Shown: positions 8,849 to 53,687 of the stretch, piece after piece
Layout: each line of letters starts with the position of its first letter
Numbering within the stretch: position 1 is the first letter of the stretch
Source: Candidatus Woesearchaeota archaeon
GTDB lineage: Archaea; Nanobdellota; Nanobdellia; SCGC-AAA011-G17; UBA489
Assembly (NCBI GenBank): GCA_964367375.1
Contig: CAYIXG010000001.1
Coordinates: 3,905 to 67,904, forward strand
Length of the DNA stretch: 64,000 nucleotides
Direction of reading: 5' to 3'
Notes under the pieces: model-generated
The model's database searches: none
The model's input: only the letters and a program-made list of their open reading frames with translations
Told to the model about the DNA's origin: nothing
Position numbers and translations under genes: made by a program

Positions 8849-8873
8849 AAACCTCGCTGTTTTTTGATGCAGT

Positions 8874-8960
8874 GCCTCGGTAGCTCAGCTCGGTAGAGCA
8901 CGTGGCTGTTATAAACCAGCAGATACCACGCGGTCGAAGGTTCAAATCCTTCCTGAGGCG
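8874..8960 (+). tRNA. tRNA-Asn(GUU) with a 13-nt canonical anticodon-loop intron
   Basis: GCCTCGG-TA-GCTC-AGCTCGGTA-GAGC-A-CGTGG-CTGTTA[t aaaccagcagat]a-CCACG-CGGTC-GAAGG-TTCAAAT-CCTTC-CTGAGGC-G. All stems pair; the mature molecule would be 74 nt. Confidence 0.7.
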
Positions 8961-8963
8961 GAT

Positions 8964-47976: not shown

Positions 47977-48630
47977 TTATTGTTTCTCACCAATTAATAG
48001 AATAAACTTCCCTTTTGCTTTGAAACCATATTCTGGAGTATGAAGTAGATTATCTTCATACGTTGATTCTTGCATAGTTATTGAATAATTTTTAAGAAAT
48101 CTTTTTAATAATTTTTTAGCAGCATTCATTGTATATAATGTACTATATTTTGATTCATCTTGTTTGTTAAAAGGTTCTCTTTGAATATCAGTAGCAAAAT
48201 CAAGTATAATCATTCCTTTCTTTTTCAAAATCCTATTTATCTCTAAAAAAATAAATTCTAATTGTTTTTCTTTGAATAAATGTAAAGTTCCTGTACAAAA
48301 TACTCCATCAAATGACTTATCATCAAAAGGAAATGTTGTAGTTATATCAAATTGTTTCAATTCTACTTTCTGTTTTTGTTTTTCAGATAATTTTGATTCA
48401 ATTTTTTTTAATTCATTTGTATTTAAATCAGATACAGTTAGTTTATTTACTTTCTCAAGCAATTCAGGAAGATATCTACCATCTCCTGCTGCGAGATCAA
48501 GCCAAGTTCCTTTCATTTCAGTTTGTTTTAGTAATCGAAGAGTTAATACTTCTCCTTCACCCCAGATTGATTTGTTTAACATAACTATAATTAAAAAATA
48601 GAGATTAATAATCTTTCGGAGAATTAACAC
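47977..48630 (-). CDS. Class I SAM-dependent methyltransferase, in a ~27%-GC island
   Basis: Motif I WLDLAAGDGRY, motif post-I LTVSDLN, and motif II/III region DGVFCTGTLHLF...KKGMIILDF. The base composition is strikingly more AT-rich than the flanking genes. Confidence 0.6.
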   Translation of the reverse strand: MLILRKIINLYFLIIVMLNKSIWGEGEVLTLRLLKQTEMKGTWLDLAAGDGRYLPELLEKVNKLTVSDLNTNELKKIESKLSEKQKQKVELKQFDITTTFPFDDKSFDGVFCTGTLHLFKEKQLEFIFLEINRILKKKGMIILDFATDIQREPFNKQDESKYSTLYTMNAAKKLLKRFLKNYSITMQESTYEDNLLHTPEYGFKAKGKFILLIGEKQ

Positions 48631-49047: not shown

Positions 49048-50526
49048 TTATTTTGGAGAAGTATCTTTCATGAAGGGAAAGAAAACCACATCTCTGATAG
49101 ATTCTTGTCCAGTAAGAATCATAGTAATGCGATCAACGCTGATGCCGACTCCACCTGTGGGTGGCATGCCCACTTCGAGTGTTTGCACGAATTCTTCGTC
49201 CATGGGATGTGCTTCTTCGCTTCCCGCGCGTAATTGTCGTGCTTGTTCTTCGAGAAGTTGTCTTTGCAGTAGAGGATCATTAAGTTCTGAGTATGCATTT
49301 CCAATTTCCATTCCCGCAACATATGGCTCAAATCGTTCAATCAACTGAGGATTTCCTCGTTTCGTTTTGCAGAGCATTGTGGTTTCTTTTGGATGGTCAA
49401 TAATAAAGACTGGTCCGACAAGTTTGTCTTCGCAAAGTTCTTCAAAAAGAAGTTGAATGGCAATGCCTCGAGTGTAGTCTCCTTCATATTCGATGTTGTA
49501 GTTGCGAAGTGTTGCTTGAATTTCTGCATCACTAAGTTTTGTGACATTAATTTTTGCATATTTTTTGATGGCATCAATCATGCTCAAGCGTTGCCATGGA
49601 GGTTGCAGGTTAATGGTTTTTCCTTTGAATACACACTTAGTAGTTCCGTTCACTTGTTTGGCAATAAATGCAACCATTTGTTCTGTAAGCTTCATGACAT
49701 CTTCATAGTCCCAGTATGCTGCATATGCTTCCATGAGAGTGAATTCTGGATTGTGTGTCCTGTCAATGCTTTCATTTCTGAAGTCTTTGCTTATTTCATA
49801 CACTTTTTCAAATCCGCCAACAATTAATCGTTTGAGATAAAGCTCATCAGAAATGCGGAGATACACGTCCATTTTCAGGTCATGGAGAAACGATTTAAAG
49901 GGTCGTGCGTTTGCTCCTCCGTAAATTTTTTGGAGGACTGGCGTTTCTACTTCAAGGAATCCTTTGGTGTCGAGAAATGCGCGCATGCTGCTGACAATCT
50001 GTGCGCGCTTGATAAAAATAATTTTTGTTTCTGGATTGCTAATAAGATCAAGATGTCTGTTTCTGTAGCGCGCTTCAACGTCTTTCAAGCCATGCCATTT
50101 TTCAGGGAGCGGTCGAATAGATTTGGTGAGAAGTGTCATCTGTGTGCAATGGATGGTGATTTCTCCCATTTTGGTTCTGAAGACAGTGCCGTGAATGCCG
50201 ACAATGTCTCCAATGTCAAATTTCTTGAAGAGTTCGTATTGGGTGCTGCCAATATCATCCTCCTTGATGTAGAACTGTATCTTTCCAGAAGCATCTTGGA
50301 GGTGTGCAAAGCTTGCCTTTCCCATTCTTCGAAGGCTCACAATTCTTCCAGCGACAGATACCTTGTTTTTTGTTTTCTCTTCTTTTTTGAGCTTCTTGAA
50401 ACGGTCAAGAATGGCTATTGTGTCATGTGTTTTTTCAAAGGTGTATGGATAAGGATTGATACCAAGCTTCTTGATGTCCTCGAGTTTTTTCAGTCGTTCG
50501 TTGATCAGCTCTTGTTCTGGTTGCAT
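49048..50526 (-). CDS. lysS: Lysyl-tRNA synthetase, class II
   Basis: N-terminal OB anticodon-binding domain, then class II motifs 1-3 (RNRHLDLI..., FRNESIDRTHNPEFTLMEAY, GGVGISVDRI). Confidence 0.9.
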   Translation of the reverse strand: MQPEQELINERLKKLEDIKKLGINPYPYTFEKTHDTIAILDRFKKLKKEEKTKNKVSVAGRIVSLRRMGKASFAHLQDASGKIQFYIKEDDIGSTQYELFKKFDIGDIVGIHGTVFRTKMGEITIHCTQMTLLTKSIRPLPEKWHGLKDVEARYRNRHLDLISNPETKIIFIKRAQIVSSMRAFLDTKGFLEVETPVLQKIYGGANARPFKSFLHDLKMDVYLRISDELYLKRLIVGGFEKVYEISKDFRNESIDRTHNPEFTLMEAYAAYWDYEDVMKLTEQMVAFIAKQVNGTTKCVFKGKTINLQPPWQRLSMIDAIKKYAKINVTKLSDAEIQATLRNYNIEYEGDYTRGIAIQLLFEELCEDKLVGPVFIIDHPKETTMLCKTKRGNPQLIERFEPYVAGMEIGNAYSELNDPLLQRQLLEEQARQLRAGSEEAHPMDEEFVQTLEVGMPPTGGVGISVDRITMILTGQESIRDVVFFPFMKDTSPK

Positions 50527-50607
50527 GAAGTGCCAGTAGGTGGCTTGTTTATATAGTTTATTATGAGGAAAGGAAGATATATAAACTGTTTTTCTAATCG
50601 AAGTATT

Positions 50608-51021
50608 ATGGCACTTTCAGAGGAAGAGCAGAAAATATTGTATTCTATCATTGTAGATTCGGAGAATGATCCAATGAAGCCGGAGTTTCCTCCGGATAAT
50701 CCTCAGTTTCCTGCAACTCCTACGTTTAAGATTGAGGTGCCTGGGTTTTCGAATGTGTGGTTAAAAGACGAAAGTAAGAATCCAACAGGCACAAATAATG
50801 ATCGGAAGGCATGGGAGATGGTGGTTACATATCGGGATTTTTTACTTACAAAGAAGAATGGCCAGATTAAGGAGAAGCTCCCACAGCTATCAGTTATCAC
50901 TTCAGGTTCCGCTGCTATTGCAATTCAATCACTGTTGAGACATTACAAACTTCCGCCATTAAAATGCTTAGTTGACTTGGATTTAAAAGATGAGATTCTT
51001 TTGAACTATGAATACTACTAG
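50608..51021 (+). CDS. Truncated PALP-fold (threonine-synthase/Trp-synthase-beta-like) protein apparently lacking the PLP lysine
   Basis: TPTFKIEVPGFSNVWLKDESKNPTGTNNDRKAWEM matches the PALP K-D-E-x-x-N-P-T-G-S-F-K-D-R motif but has NN in place of FK. SVITSGSAAIAIQS matches the SSGNxG glycine loop. The ORF stops about 40 aa later, ~150 aa short of a full PALP domain, and its end overlaps the next gene by 14 nt. Confidence 0.45.
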   Translation: MALSEEEQKILYSIIVDSENDPMKPEFPPDNPQFPATPTFKIEVPGFSNVWLKDESKNPTGTNNDRKAWEMVVTYRDFLLTKKNGQIKEKLPQLSVITSGSAAIAIQSLLRHYKLPPLKCLVDLDLKDEILLNYEYY

Positions 51022-52525
51022 TAAACCTTTTTTTTCTGAAGAAAAGGAAAAATTAGGAAATAAATTCGCATTTGTTAGGATTTTGGGAGATGATCGTTTT
51101 GATCAGAATATCGGAGATTATAATGTTGGGTTAAGATACCTTGCTGATGCAGTGAAAAGAAAAGGGGTAGGAGTGGACATTTATGACCCTCTTGATACGG
51201 ATAGGCTTACTAATCCTCAAGGATACGCTGTGGTTGGGTTTTATGTGCATCACATTAACATAGTTAAAAGTTTAGATCTTGCAAAAGCATTGAAAAAAAA
51301 TTCTAGACAACCATTTATTGTATTTGGAGGTCATCATGCTTCTGCAACTGCGAAGGAAATTCTAGAAGATAACCCTTTTGTCGATGCAGTTTGTGTTGGG
51401 GAAGGGGAAGATATAATGTGCGAGATAGCTGGAAAGGTTGCGTCTGAAGAAGATATTTCAAATTATCGCGGAAAATTATCCTCAAATCCATATTGGGATA
51501 TTGAAAACTTGTCTTTTCCGGAAATGCCAGAAGAGGTTTCTATTGCGAGGGTAAGCACTTCGAGAGGGTGTCCATATTCGTGTTCTTTCTGTACAACTCC
51601 TGCAATCAGAAAAATTCGAGGAGAACCCTTATTTAGAGCAAGAAGCCCTGAGAGTGTTGTTGAGGAGATAAGTAGATATGTGGAGGCAGGTGCAAAACAG
51701 GTGAGGATAAATGATGATATTTACATTCAGAGAAACTCAAGGACTCATGGCAGAGCTTTAGAGATTGCAAGAAAATTATTGCAAAATAGAGTAGATGCTA
51801 ATTATAAGGCAGAATTCAGGATTGATGCGTTTGATCCTAATCAAATTTCTGAGTTAAGACTGTTGAGAGAGTCTGGTTTAAGAGAAGTGTTTTTAGGAAT
51901 CGAAAGTGGCAGTGATAAAATTCTTGAAGAGTATAACAAGAAACTGAAAAGGAGAGATATTCTAGAGAGATTACATATGTATAACGATGTAGGTATTGTT
52001 GTTAACGCCGGAAACATATTAGTGTCTCCAAATAGTTCCATTGATGAGATTTGTGATTCTGTAGAAGGGTTTAGGAGCTTTGGTTTAGCGTATCTGTTTT
52101 TTAGGAGAGTGACGTTTCGTGCACACATTTTTCCAGGAACAGAGCTTGAAAGAAGATTACTTCTTGAGGGGAGAATAGAAGATAAGCCAAGATATGTTGA
52201 TCGTAAGTATAGGCTTTTAGATAGGAGGATTGAAGATATTGCAACACTTTTTGAAGAGAGGATGCCTGAGTTTCTTAATAATTACGGAAGTTTTTTTTCC
52301 ACAAGAAGAAGGGTGTTACATAAGGTATATGATGGGGACTCTTCTAATAACAAAAGAAAAGTGTTAGCTATACTAGATTTGCTTAATAACAAAGTTGCTG
52401 ATTTGTTAATAGTGTGGTTTATGAAACTAGATCCAAAGCGAATTACCACTCATACTGCTGATGAGGTATTTGAGGTGATCGGCGATATGTTTGGAGAAGC
52501 TGAGAAAGGGTTAAAAGATGTTTGA
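51008..52525 (+). CDS. Cobalamin-binding-domain radical SAM enzyme (class B rSAM)
   Basis: N-terminal Rossmann-like B12-binding-type domain (PFIVFGGHHASA...VDAVCVGEGE), then the rSAM core SRGCPYSCSFCTTP (Cx3Cx2C) and GIESGSDKIL. Confidence 0.7.
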   Translation: MNTTSKPFFSEEKEKLGNKFAFVRILGDDRFDQNIGDYNVGLRYLADAVKRKGVGVDIYDPLDTDRLTNPQGYAVVGFYVHHINIVKSLDLAKALKKNSRQPFIVFGGHHASATAKEILEDNPFVDAVCVGEGEDIMCEIAGKVASEEDISNYRGKLSSNPYWDIENLSFPEMPEEVSIARVSTSRGCPYSCSFCTTPAIRKIRGEPLFRARSPESVVEEISRYVEAGAKQVRINDDIYIQRNSRTHGRALEIARKLLQNRVDANYKAEFRIDAFDPNQISELRLLRESGLREVFLGIESGSDKILEEYNKKLKRRDILERLHMYNDVGIVVNAGNILVSPNSSIDEICDSVEGFRSFGLAYLFFRRVTFRAHIFPGTELERRLLLEGRIEDKPRYVDRKYRLLDRRIEDIATLFEERMPEFLNNYGSFFSTRRRVLHKVYDGDSSNNKRKVLAILDLLNNKVADLLIVWFMKLDPKRITTHTADEVFEVIGDMFGEAEKGLKDV

Positions 52526-53267
52526 GAAGAACTTATATGTAATTAGTGGAGCTCATGGGTCAGGAAAATCGACGCTTGTCAAAAGAGTCAGTGATCATTT
52601 AAAGGAAACTGGTGTGCCATTTGTATCTGTTTCAGAAGTTGCAAGATTATGCCCTTATCCAGTAGGTGAGAAGTCTACATCGCTCGCACAACAGTGGATT
52701 TTGTATCATCAAGCATTTACTGAGATAATTCTTGGACAGTTAAGATTGCCTGTTATTCTTGATAGATGTGTTGTTGATCATTATTCATATTATATTCATT
52801 GGAATGCCGGTCCTGAGATCTTCTTAGAGTCTTTCTTAGATAGATATCAGAGAGTGTTTAAACTTCCAGCAAGGAGAGAGTTTCTTGTCTCTGATGGGTT
52901 GCGACCAATTGATATTGAATACCAAAGGAAGATTGATCGTGTTATTACTGCTATGTATGGTAAGAGTGATAGGGGAAAGGATTGGTATGTAAATCTTGAT
53001 CCTACTAAAGATGAGAGTATTGCTCTAGTAGAAAGGGAAGTGAGGAGGTATACAAAGGGTGTTTCATCGTTAGTAAGATGGCCTGATTTGGGTGAGGTGG
53101 TGAATGGTGAGTTAGAAATTGTTTCTACTCTTGATTCTGAATCCGTGTCTGGAATTATTGCAAGTATATTATCTTTTTGTGGTACTTCAGGTTATATAGT
53201 AAGAGTTATCAATGCTCCTGATTCAATCAAAAAGCATCTAGTAGAACAAGGGTTAGTCAATACATAA
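52518..53267 (+). CDS. P-loop nucleotide/nucleoside-kinase-like protein (dTMP-kinase/dNK fold)
   Basis: Walker A ISGAHGSGKSTLV. DRCVVDHYSYYIHWNAG resembles the DRY/DRS lid-region motif of thymidylate and deoxynucleoside kinases. The start overlaps the rSAM stop by 8 nt. Confidence 0.5.
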   Translation: MFEKNLYVISGAHGSGKSTLVKRVSDHLKETGVPFVSVSEVARLCPYPVGEKSTSLAQQWILYHQAFTEIILGQLRLPVILDRCVVDHYSYYIHWNAGPEIFLESFLDRYQRVFKLPARREFLVSDGLRPIDIEYQRKIDRVITAMYGKSDRGKDWYVNLDPTKDESIALVEREVRRYTKGVSSLVRWPDLGEVVNGELEIVSTLDSESVSGIIASILSFCGTSGYIVRVINAPDSIKKHLVEQGLVNT

Positions 53268-53687
53268 TTTTTTATCTTGATCGATTTTGAAGTGAATTTT
53301 TTTGTTTCTATAGGCTTGTAGTGCTTCTTTTGCGAAGGGGAGTAATTGGTCTTCTACTTCGTATGGATGGATCCAAAAGGCAGTTGCTTCTTCAGTATCA
53401 GTTGGGTTGCCATCTCCTTTCCCATATAGTAATAATACTACTCTATGATCTTTAACACTTTTGTTTCTGAGTTCGCAAAAACCAATTGGGCGCAATGAGT
53501 CGGCTGGTATTTTAATACCTGTTTCTTCGAAGATTTCTCTTGCTGCACCTTGGTTTGACCATTCTCCAAATCTGAGACCTCCTCCAGGAATGGATAATTT
53601 ATTAACATAAGGGCCTTTTTTCAGTTTAATAAAGAGAAGCTTGCCTTGATCGTTTTCTACGATTGCATTGACGTTCAAACGAAGCAT
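53253..53687 (-). CDS. NUDIX hydrolase
   Basis: GGGLRFGEWSNQGAAREIFEETGI (Nudix box); 144 aa. Convergent with the kinase-like gene, with a 15-nt overlap. Confidence 0.75.
   Translation of the reverse strand: MLRLNVNAIVENDQGKLLFIKLKKGPYVNKLSIPGGGLRFGEWSNQGAAREIFEETGIKIPADSLRPIGFCELRNKSVKDHRVVLLLYGKGDGNPTDTEEATAFWIHPYEVEDQLLPFAKEALQAYRNKKIHFKIDQDKKLCID

Follow-up and report, generated by a model that had tools for sequence, protein, structure and literature searches.

A 64,000-nucleotide stretch of a Candidatus Woesearchaeota genome (assembly GCA_964367375.1, contig CAYIXG010000001.1, positions 3,905 to 67,904; henceforth the window) carries a compact accessory module made up of genes for a predicted cobalamin-dependent radical S-adenosylmethionine (rSAM) enzyme (g2), a kinase-like P-loop protein (g3) and a convergently encoded MutT-like NUDIX hydrolase. 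Our overall reading, to which we give about even odds (probability about 0.5), is that this horizontally acquired trio tailors nucleotides and is probably used in biological conflict. Upstream of g2 lies a short open reading frame (ORF), g1, which encodes the beginning of a PALP-fold protein. The original prediction for this locus had joined g1, g2 and g3 into one operon and had treated the NUDIX gene as a mere boundary. On re-reading the sequence, we found the three plus-strand ORFs, both of their overlaps and the motifs described to be real, but the unit itself had to be redrawn: g1 is host-like in composition (GC content at third codon positions, GC3, of 0.41) and absent from related loci, while the NUDIX gene has orthologues in the same arrangement at two of them (L001 and L008, with 72% and 48% identity) and NUDIX domains are fused to 11 of 40 proteins of the g3 clade. 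The conserved unit is thus g2, g3 and the NUDIX gene.

A compositionally foreign block

The g1 ORF (50563-51021), g2 (51008-52525, 505 aa) and g3 (52518-53267, 249 aa) lie on the plus strand and overlap by 14 nt (51008-51021) and 8 nt (52518-52525), respectively, and the 3' end of g3 is in turn overlapped by 15 nt by the convergent NUDIX gene on the minus strand (53253-53687, 144 aa). The GC content of g2, g3 and the NUDIX gene is 0.367-0.372, compared with 0.425 for the window, in agreement with the low GC and accessory character originally ascribed to the locus. GC3 is 0.273 for g2, 0.256 for g3 and 0.283 for the NUDIX gene, while the surroundings show 0.406 (g1), 0.391 (lysS, divergent on the upstream side, 49048-50526, minus strand), 0.47 (a downstream methyltransferase gene) and 0.53 and 0.48 (two ORFs that, recognised by eye, we take to encode S17e and Alba). 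Because third-position GC drops in this manner (0.26-0.28 versus 0.39-0.53) and because PALP homology ends at the same point, we delimit the foreign block at 51008-53687. At neither edge of the block did we find a terminator, a tRNA gene or any meaningful direct or inverted repeat. We conclude that g2, g3 and the NUDIX gene constitute a compositionally foreign, horizontally acquired accessory module, and both the GC3 contrast and the patchy phyletic spread of the rSAM family described below count in favour of our overall reading.

g2 encodes a radical SAM enzyme of the B12-dependent class, nearest to OxsB

By its domains, motif and fold, g2 is a full-length cobalamin-dependent (class B) rSAM enzyme, as had been proposed, with cofactor use predicted from these features. 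Pfam recognises a B12-binding domain (52.8 bits, gathering score 32.1) and a Radical_SAM domain (65.9 bits, gathering score 29.5). The cluster motif CPYSCSFC at 51569-51592 supplies C188-x3-C192-x2-C195, whose cysteines are invariant in 23 family members, and the AlphaFold model, with a predicted local distance difference test score (pLDDT) of 91.1, resolves into the Rossmann-type B12 domain, the radical SAM core and a region of four helices at the C terminus. Comparison with NCBIfam, whose equivalogs cover the ladderane lipid rSAM enzyme, HpnR, HpnJ, PhpK, BchE, the methyl-coenzyme M reductase (MCR) Gln methyltransferase, BzaD and others, gave no model above its cut-off: the best was TIGR04072 (rSAM_ladder_B12) with 104 bits versus 360, and further matches were to HpnR (90 bits versus a cut-off of 650) and TIGR04014 (58 versus 360). 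Judged by these profiles, g2 belongs to no characterised family. The original prediction had named membership in such a family, along with an error-split full-length gene in place of g1, as the findings that would speak against it, and neither was found.

The closest characterised relative of g2, by profile and by fold, is OxsB, a matter of relatedness and not of orthology. A Foldseek search of the PDB with the g2 model placed OxsB at ranks 1-3 (E 1.5e-18, TMq 0.67-0.69), followed by MgmA/QCMT, AprD4, TokK, CysS, TsrM and MiaB, and a profile of the g2 family matched OxsB with E 1.5e-22, QCMT with 1.2e-14 and TokK with 9e-14. OxsB acts on 2'-dAMP, dADP and dATP and requires the phosphohydrolase OxsA (PMC13331322), and its homologue AlsB, from albucidin biosynthesis, rearranges the same set of nucleotides (PMC13331322, PMC7074753). 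In OxsB, Asn186 sits in the loop after strand 3 and holds a water below the cobalt (PMC13331322); hidden Markov model (HMM) alignment pairs this residue with the near-invariant His81 of the family, and pairs TokK Trp76 with Ile83, two residues later. For g2, these residues under the cobalamin do not separate methylase from non-methylase chemistry. By analogy with OxsB, g2 is predicted to be the catalytic core that transforms a nucleoside phosphate.

The rSAM family is rare, patchy and sharply bounded. Among 5.8 billion proteins searched, about 25 matched at E<1e-60 (38-61% identity), after which the values drop to 1e-32, and 241 million metagenome records yielded three further family loci and one short fragment only. 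The members are scattered over unclassified archaea, Chloroflexi, Chlorobiaceae and an Octadecabacter (Alphaproteobacteria).

g3 and the NUDIX gene encode a kinase-like protein and a MutT-like hydrolase

We assign g3 to the nucleoside/nucleotide-kinase-like P-loop proteins with a fold of the NadR ribosylnicotinamide-kinase (RNK) and thymidylate-kinase type, in line with the original description, and its activity is predicted. The protein matches Pfam AAA_28 with 44.4 bits (gathering score 27) and conserves a Walker A motif (GAHGSGKS), Asp82 and a DGLRP motif. With the g3 model, Foldseek returned thymidylate (TMP) kinases and a deoxyadenosine kinase first, and the PHROG family 'thymidylate kinase' was matched with E 1.4e-18; the match to the dTMP kinase model TIGR00041 (16.7 bits, cut-off 83.25) marks a likeness in fold only. 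With a profile of the g3 clade, the only solved kinases matched beyond the P-loop were NadR (1lw7, E 1.8e-4; residues 229-350, 24.5 bits) and a NadR-like nicotinamide mononucleotide (NMN) adenylyltransferase, NMNAT (9x6f).

At E≤1e-30, an exhaustive profile search of 1.84 billion proteins found just 35 clusters, counted by representatives, that belong to the g3 clade. Among the 40 clade proteins that we examined, AAA_28 was present in all and the Walker A motif in 38, and 6 of the 11 NUDIX fusions retain the strict catalytic Nudix box. The AlphaFold model of g3 is of medium quality, with a pLDDT of ~80 over residues 1-179 and below 50 over the C-terminal 70. Residues 180-249 are unconserved even in the closest orthologue, and other clade members have their NUDIX domain in that place. 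At two of the loci described below, the g3 orthologue is split over two frames (L008, 3570-4432; L175, 2847-3621), for which decay, a frameshift or faulty assembly could account; the g3 protein as called in L008 is without the Walker A segment.

The convergent gene encodes a protein with a Pfam NUDIX match of 56.9 bits (gathering score 21.1) and an intact Nudix box, GGLRFGEWSNQGAAREIFEETGI, that fits the strict pattern Gx5Ex7REUxEExGU. It is MutT-like and closest to MutT-type NTP pyrophosphohydrolases, with 29.3 bits to TIGR00586 (8-oxo-dGTPase; cut-off 97.9), and shows weak matches to the NMNAT/Nudix bifunctional models of NCBIfam. We regard the NUDIX protein as a true third component of the module, its hydrolase activity being predicted, because of the orthologues in the same arrangement at L001 and L008, the co-directional NUDIX genes in Octadecabacter and in a conjugative-transposon operon (see below), and the fusions in the g3 clade. 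Apart from that of the module, the window contains a single strict Nudix box, at 111-179 on the minus strand and ~50 kb away, so the second NUDIX gene that had been placed nearby is in fact remote.

The rSAM, kinase and phosphohydrolase genes travel together

Neighbourhoods of the rSAM family were compared by BLAST and by HMM. Orthologues of g3 with 30-51% identity to the window copy adjoin the rSAM gene in eight of the ten family loci that have both flanks visible, whereas a g3-like neighbour occurs at none of 159 generic B12-rSAM control loci (Fisher p = 3e-12). A strict Nudix-box ORF is present in the flanks of 4/10 family loci versus 2/159 controls (p = 9e-5). The controls are the generic B12-rSAM loci among the matches listed from unspecific scans with the full rSAM alignment, in which the generic TSRGCP motif drew only 23-29% identical B12-rSAMs among the matches listed. 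The pairing of an rSAM gene with a kinase gene, for which the original prediction had proposed a neighbourhood check, does recur in other genomes.

The third gene of the unit is a nucleotide phosphohydrolase gene of varying family. A convergent NUDIX orthologue follows the g3 orthologue in L001 (and also L002 and L169), which shares even the 8-nt overlap with the rSAM gene, and in L008. The Octadecabacter locus (L005) has a co-directional NUDIX gene and, in the position of g3, DNMK, a deoxynucleotide monophosphate kinase of the T4 gp1 type. The g3 orthologue is accompanied by an RNase_T exonuclease gene in L006 and by a CYTH gene in L175, and the Chloroflexi locus (L003), whose upstream flank is cut by the contig end, encodes a DUF4743 protein. 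We take DUF4743 to be the N-terminal domain of some NUDIX hydrolases; in the L003 protein, neither a NUDIX domain nor a Nudix box was detected. L174 and L176 have a g3 orthologue as well, and no third gene was identified in L176. In L170 (340-5561), the AAA_28 gene precedes the rSAM gene, and a gene for a 985-aa TCAD9/APH-like/nSTAND protein overlaps the pair.

A larger relative of the window module is found in L177 (4019-9398), with equivalents in L178 and L179, as an operon for a NUDIX protein, a B12-rSAM, an AAA_28::NUDIX fusion and a P-loop NTPase::GT4-conflict glycosyltransferase. Its B12-rSAM is only 25% identical to g2, and the fusion protein (P0215) is 41% identical to g3. The NUDIX domain of this fusion is degenerate in the L177-179 operon, and the stand-alone NUDIX protein of L177 is a strong match to the PADLOC model PDC-S07 (152.7 bits). 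The GT4-conflict protein, encoded directly downstream, measures 838-1039 aa, and its 1039-aa copy scores 207 bits for GT4-conflict. The operon resides on a Bacteroidota-type conjugative transposon with TraM, integrase, relaxase, MobC and TraG.

Genes for mobility and conflict recur at these loci. Integrase, resolvase, serine-recombinase or TraG-like genes stand beside L005 (resolvase, together with HsdM), L174 (serine recombinase and TraG-like genes), L175 (integrase) and L177, and STAND, TPR, TCAD9 or GT4-conflict proteins are encoded in or beside L170, L173 and L177-179. The overlap of the gene for the 985-aa protein of L170 with the AAA_28 start suggests a sensor/effector arrangement in some bacterial versions. 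We conclude that the conserved unit comprises an rSAM enzyme, a kinase-like protein and a nucleotide phosphohydrolase, and that it is mobile, rare and patchy. The data directly support the make-up and conservation of the module, its foreign origin, the assignments of fold and family, the intactness of the catalytic motifs and, as set out next, the nature of g1 as a remnant.

g1 is the stump of a resident PALP gene

Every homologue of g1 starts at a methionine equivalent to the ATG at 50608, and the true protein thus has 137 aa (50608-51021), not 152 aa. It carries KDESKNPTGTNNDRKAWE and ITSGSAAIA and matches Pfam PALP with 29.8 bits, below the gathering score of 35, over profile positions 8-80 of 295 only. 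We found 88 homologues in DPANN archaea and bacteria of the Candidate Phyla Radiation (CPR) at 60-76% identity, which is unusually high between domains; no curated equivalog was matched by this family. Alignment of 13 homologues gave a family motif, KDESxNPTG-T-H-K-D-R-M-AWE, with the canonical Schiff-base lysine, whereas the window copy reads T-N-N-D-R-K, and g1 differs from the family at exactly two of 58 invariant columns, His78 and Lys79, both of which are Asn in g1. The description of g1 as a truncated PALP derivative without the Schiff-base lysine (T-N-N-D-R for T-H-K-D-R) was therefore correct. Its early end was also recognised correctly, and the shortfall is about 200-210 residues by homologue alignment. 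About 40% of the fold is left, and the glycine-rich phosphate loop (FGTGN) and the C-terminal motifs of the homologues are missing.

In tblastn comparisons of the long homologues with the window, homology ended at 51000-51012, at the start codon of g2 (51008), and the missing ~210 C-terminal residues were found in no frame of the 64 kb. A split or frameshifted full-length PALP gene was rejected on this basis, as neither the long homologues nor the read-through C-terminus gave anything past 51012 in any frame. No homologue of g1 was found at the other rSAM family loci, and the closest relative locus (rSAM 61% identical) has in its position an unrelated ORF of 90 aa with no Pfam match; a role for g1 as a conserved subunit of the module was rejected for want of a homologue at any other family locus. 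Because its composition is host-like, because homology stops at the junction and because it is absent from the other family loci, g1 is what remains, at the 5' end, of a resident PALP gene that was cut at the edge of the incoming block, and is not a component of the module. It had been offered as either a decayed remnant or a small non-catalytic protein, and we adopt the former.

A TATA-like box (atatataaa, 50578-50586, plus strand), read from the sequence ~25 nt upstream of the ATG at 50608, is a probable archaeal promoter of the resident PALP gene that would now head a g1-g2-g3 transcript. The module would have landed in, or replaced, the 3' two-thirds of the resident gene, and its promoter and leader ORF would now come from the stump, with the stop of the leader overlapping the start of g2. 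That g1 acts as a leader ORF delivering ribosomes to g2 is probable, since it retains an intact ORF and a native promoter besides this overlap. The locus is a clean example, within a reduced archaeal genome, of a mobile operon that has taken over a resident gene's promoter along with its translated 5' stump.

Other members of this PALP family are interrupted or short. In L180 (6001-7050) and L181 (2296-3345), the PALP frame extends to ~349 residues and includes the FGTGN loop; an in-frame TAA follows residue 265, where P0161 ends too, and the C-terminal motifs EPSGISGLA and NTGKT come after it. Short PALP ORFs inside long contigs (P0127, of 133 aa and in 24 contigs, P0133 and P0197) end near the end of g1. 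This family may tend to be truncated or split repeatedly.

A proposed nucleotide-tailoring pathway and its alternatives

On the basis of these assignments, we propose a pathway of four steps. First, the NUDIX protein would hydrolyse a canonical (deoxy)nucleoside triphosphate, (d)NTP, to the monophosphate, (d)NMP, a task that would fall to a CYTH, DEDD-exonuclease or DUF4743-type enzyme at other loci. Second, the rSAM enzyme would make a radical change to the sugar or base of the (d)NMP, either an OxsB-like rearrangement or a C-methylation. Third, the kinase would selectively phosphorylate the altered (d)NMP to a modified diphosphate, (d)NDP, which host enzymes would convert to the triphosphate. 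Fourth, the resulting non-canonical nucleotide would be used in conflict as an antiviral or toxic analogue, like the products of viperins or oxetanocin. Since a NUDIX protein and a kinase working on the same nucleotide would run a futile cycle, and yet the two are paired or even fused, we suggest that they act on two distinct nucleotides, one before and one after the rSAM step. A nucleotide is favoured as the substrate because OxsB is nearest to g2 by fold and profile, because the fold of g3 resembles TMP and deoxynucleoside kinases and because g3 matches the PHROG 'thymidylate kinase'. As to the end use, which is less certain than the order of steps, we favour a diffusible toxic or antiviral nucleotide analogue because the loci are often mobile or set among conflict genes, because STAND partners and a link to PDC-S07 occur among them, and because no close relatives were found in viral contigs. 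More speculatively, and with less confidence than in the reading as a whole, radical-SAM 'antiviral nucleotide synthases' might have a second lineage, dependent on cobalamin and shared by archaea, bacteria and conjugative elements, to which the module would belong and whose product would be a new nucleotide analogue, such as a ring-contracted or C-methylated deoxynucleotide, made in an NMP-level hydrolase-rSAM-kinase cycle and, in bacteria, sometimes controlled by STAND-type sensors.

Several observations weigh against this nucleotide-tailoring reading. The order of steps, the nucleotide substrate, the chemistry and the role in conflict are pieced together from neighbouring genes and remote similarity. 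OxsB and g2 are 14-15% identical and measure 744 and 505 aa, respectively; the N-terminal domain I of OxsB (~150 residues) is missing in g2, such that OxsB enters the profile alignment at its residue 152, and in the fold search OxsB leads QCMT, AprD4 and TokK by a modest margin. The profile of the kinase core is closest to the RNK domain of NadR, which makes a substrate related to nicotinamide adenine dinucleotide (NAD) possible. In the window, the NUDIX gene is on the opposite strand and hence is not co-transcribed with g2 and g3, no sensor or STAND partner is found at the locus, and the surroundings are housekeeping genes (lysS, S17e and Alba) and no defence island. Searching the window proteins with PADLOC-DB v2 gave weak, generic matches (g2 to PDC-M51A, partial, 49.9 bits; the NUDIX protein to PDC-S07, 24.8 bits), and no close relative of the rSAM family or the g3 clade was found among the 2.9 million viral contigs of IMG/VR. 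About a dozen independent loci stand behind the synteny, several of them on short or frameshifted metagenomic contigs. Finally, g1 keeps 56 of the 58 family-invariant residues in an intact ORF and may have a residual role beyond that of a leader.

The same enzyme triad could instead serve pre-replicative hypermodification of nucleic acids, following the hydroxymethyl-dC logic of phage T4: the NUDIX protein would deplete a dNTP, the rSAM enzyme would modify the dNMP, and the kinase would phosphorylate the modified dNMP only, so that the altered base enters the DNA of the host or the element, for example as an anti-restriction measure on conjugative elements, with a glycosyltransferase decorating it at some loci. 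The kinase of the T4 gp1 family in Octadecabacter and the glycosyltransferase added by the conjugative-transposon operon fit this scheme, and the fusion of the kinase to a catalytically intact NTP pyrophosphohydrolase would imply two nucleotides, one canonical and one modified. The viral contigs, however, where such pathways are typical, contain no member of the rSAM family or relative of g3; in archaea, the loci are without a DNA polymerase, glycosyltransferase or restriction gene as partner; and exchanging a base throughout a cellular chromosome would come at a high cost. Moreover, the fusion of the GT4-conflict protein with a STAND-like P-loop NTPase is of a kind seen more typically in immune sensors and effectors. 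We consider hypermodification unlikely, though worth keeping in mind.

A second alternative follows from the NAD-related substrate mentioned above. Here g3 would be a kinase of the ribosylnicotinamide type, the NUDIX protein would cleave NAD(H) or ADP-ribose, and the rSAM enzyme would modify a pyridine nucleotide or riboside, so that an NAD-derived metabolite or signal is made or destroyed. AAA_28, to which g3 belongs, is the Pfam family that holds the NadR RNK domain, and NadR and the NadR-like protein are the only solved kinases that the clade profile reaches beyond the P-loop. The P0215 fusion is labelled 'nicotinamide riboside kinase' by the Joint Genome Institute (JGI), the window NUDIX protein has its weak NMNAT/Nudix matches, and NAD is described as a common currency of conflict systems (PMC9503650). 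Against this stand the weakness of the NadR matches, the fold search and the PHROG match of g3, which point to TMP and deoxynucleoside kinases, the replacement of g3 by a deoxynucleotide monophosphate kinase at L005, the proximity of the NUDIX protein to MutT-type NTP pyrophosphohydrolases, and the fact that an NMN adenylyltransferase, SIR2 or TIR partner was seen at no locus. We judge an NAD-related module to be improbable.

It is very improbable that g1 is a small non-catalytic, PALP-derived subunit working with the rSAM enzyme and the kinase as a three-protein system. The intact ORF with its native start and promoter-like box, the overlap of its stop with the start of g2 and the loss of precisely the catalytic His-Lys dyad from an otherwise conserved segment would suit such a role, but other family loci lack a homologue, the closest relative has an unrelated ORF in its place, the composition is that of the host and unlike that of g2, g3 and the NUDIX gene, PALP homology stops at the junction, and the part of the fold that is left is without the phosphate loop and the C-terminal domain. 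A further alternative, in which g2 is simply a housekeeping methyltransferase of the B12-rSAM type that modifies a lipid, tRNA or cofactor and has its neighbours by coincidence, would fit the setting among housekeeping genes and the lipid and hopanoid enzymes that are the best NCBIfam similarities of g2, but we hardly credit it given scores far under cut-offs of 360-650 bits, a rare and patchy family of about 25 members, a foreign composition, and kinase and hydrolase neighbours kept across phyla yet seen at 0 and 2 of the 159 control loci.

Other features of the window

A gene for a SAM-dependent methyltransferase of the Methyltransf_11 family (47977-48630, minus strand) lies ~2.4 kb upstream of the module, with a GC content of 0.258 and a GC3 of 0.138, compared with 0.425 GC for the window; the AT-rich methyltransferase noted earlier near the locus is thus confirmed, and it looks like a second, independently acquired foreign gene. 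The window also encodes an Hjc resolvase (Pfam match) and, presumably, a histone-like protein, which like Alba and S17e we recognised by eye; together with the 'archaeon' and Nanoarchaeota labels carried by the closest homologues, these genes mark the DNA as archaeal. A tRNA-like gene at 8873-8961 (plus strand) was reported by ARAGORN with a four-base anticodon (ataa) and no amino acid assigned.

Comparison with known systems

If the module makes a new nucleotide analogue, the B12-dependent class would join viperin in applying radical-SAM nucleotide chemistry to immunity or to conflict between elements. OxsB, so far confined to one plasmid of Bacillus and a single cluster in Streptomyces, would gain a link to a family that is widely dispersed, and the three genes would offer a compact source of nucleosides with potential antiviral or antimetabolite use. 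The module is small, and clear orthologues exist in cultivable lineages (Octadecabacter and Bacteroidota elements). Searches of the open-access and bioRxiv literature, PADLOC, NCBIfam, PHROG and the PDB found no description of the combination of rSAM, kinase and NUDIX genes.

Membership in a known defence system was rejected, as the window proteins gave only weak, generic PADLOC matches. PDC-S07 (NUDIX) and PDC-M51A (B12-rSAM) are unvalidated candidates, neither of which describes the combination of rSAM, kinase and NUDIX, and the rSAM proteins match PDC-M51A weakly (28-50 bits).

In NAD salvage, AAA_28 is shared between NadR and g3, and the pairing or fusion of kinase and NUDIX recalls bifunctional proteins of this pathway such as NadM-Nudix. 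The similarity is weak, though; the module has no NMN adenylyltransferase domain, and its obligatory partner, a B12-rSAM, has no role in known NAD salvage.

In phage T4, the dCTPase gp56, the dCMP hydroxymethylase gp42 and the dNMP kinase gp1 act in turn, followed by glucosyltransferases. The order of activities in this hydroxymethyl-dCMP pathway (pyrophosphatase, NMP-modifying enzyme, dNMP kinase, glycosyltransferase) resembles that of the module, but the enzyme families are unrelated save for DNMK at one locus, and the module is cellular or borne by integrative and conjugative elements. A viral origin of the module was rejected, as no close relative of the rSAM family or the g3 clade was found in IMG/VR.

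Prokaryotic viperins (pVips) reportedly make antiviral nucleotide analogues and are said to be encoded often beside a nucleotide kinase. They share with the module this pathway logic and a sporadic occurrence on islands or mobile elements. By contrast, they are without a cobalamin domain and belong to another rSAM subfamily, whereas g2 has a B12 domain, and the NUDIX partner is a feature of the module and not a hallmark of pVips; no viperin model of PADLOC matched g2. The likeness to viperin loci drawn in the original prediction therefore stands as pathway logic, but the enzyme is no viperin, and its closest relative is OxsB.

OxsB and OxsA, from the oxetanocin-A pathway of Bacillus megaterium, offer the nearest comparison. 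Both g2 and OxsB are class-1 cobalamin rSAM enzymes built from a B12 domain of Rossmann type, the radical SAM core and a helical domain at the C terminus, and in the HMM alignment a polar residue of each falls at the 'Leu' position of the SxL motif below the cobalamin (Asn186 of OxsB, His81 of the family). The pairing of an rSAM enzyme with a phosphohydrolase is also common to both, except that the partner of OxsB is an HD-domain hydrolase and the module uses a NUDIX, CYTH or DEDD-exonuclease protein. The kinase, an obligatory partner in the module, is absent from the oxs cluster, and resistance genes are absent from the module. Thus, the module resembles both OxsB/OxsA and the loci that combine a viperin with a kinase and is a member of neither, and we place it among radical-SAM nucleotide-tailoring modules.

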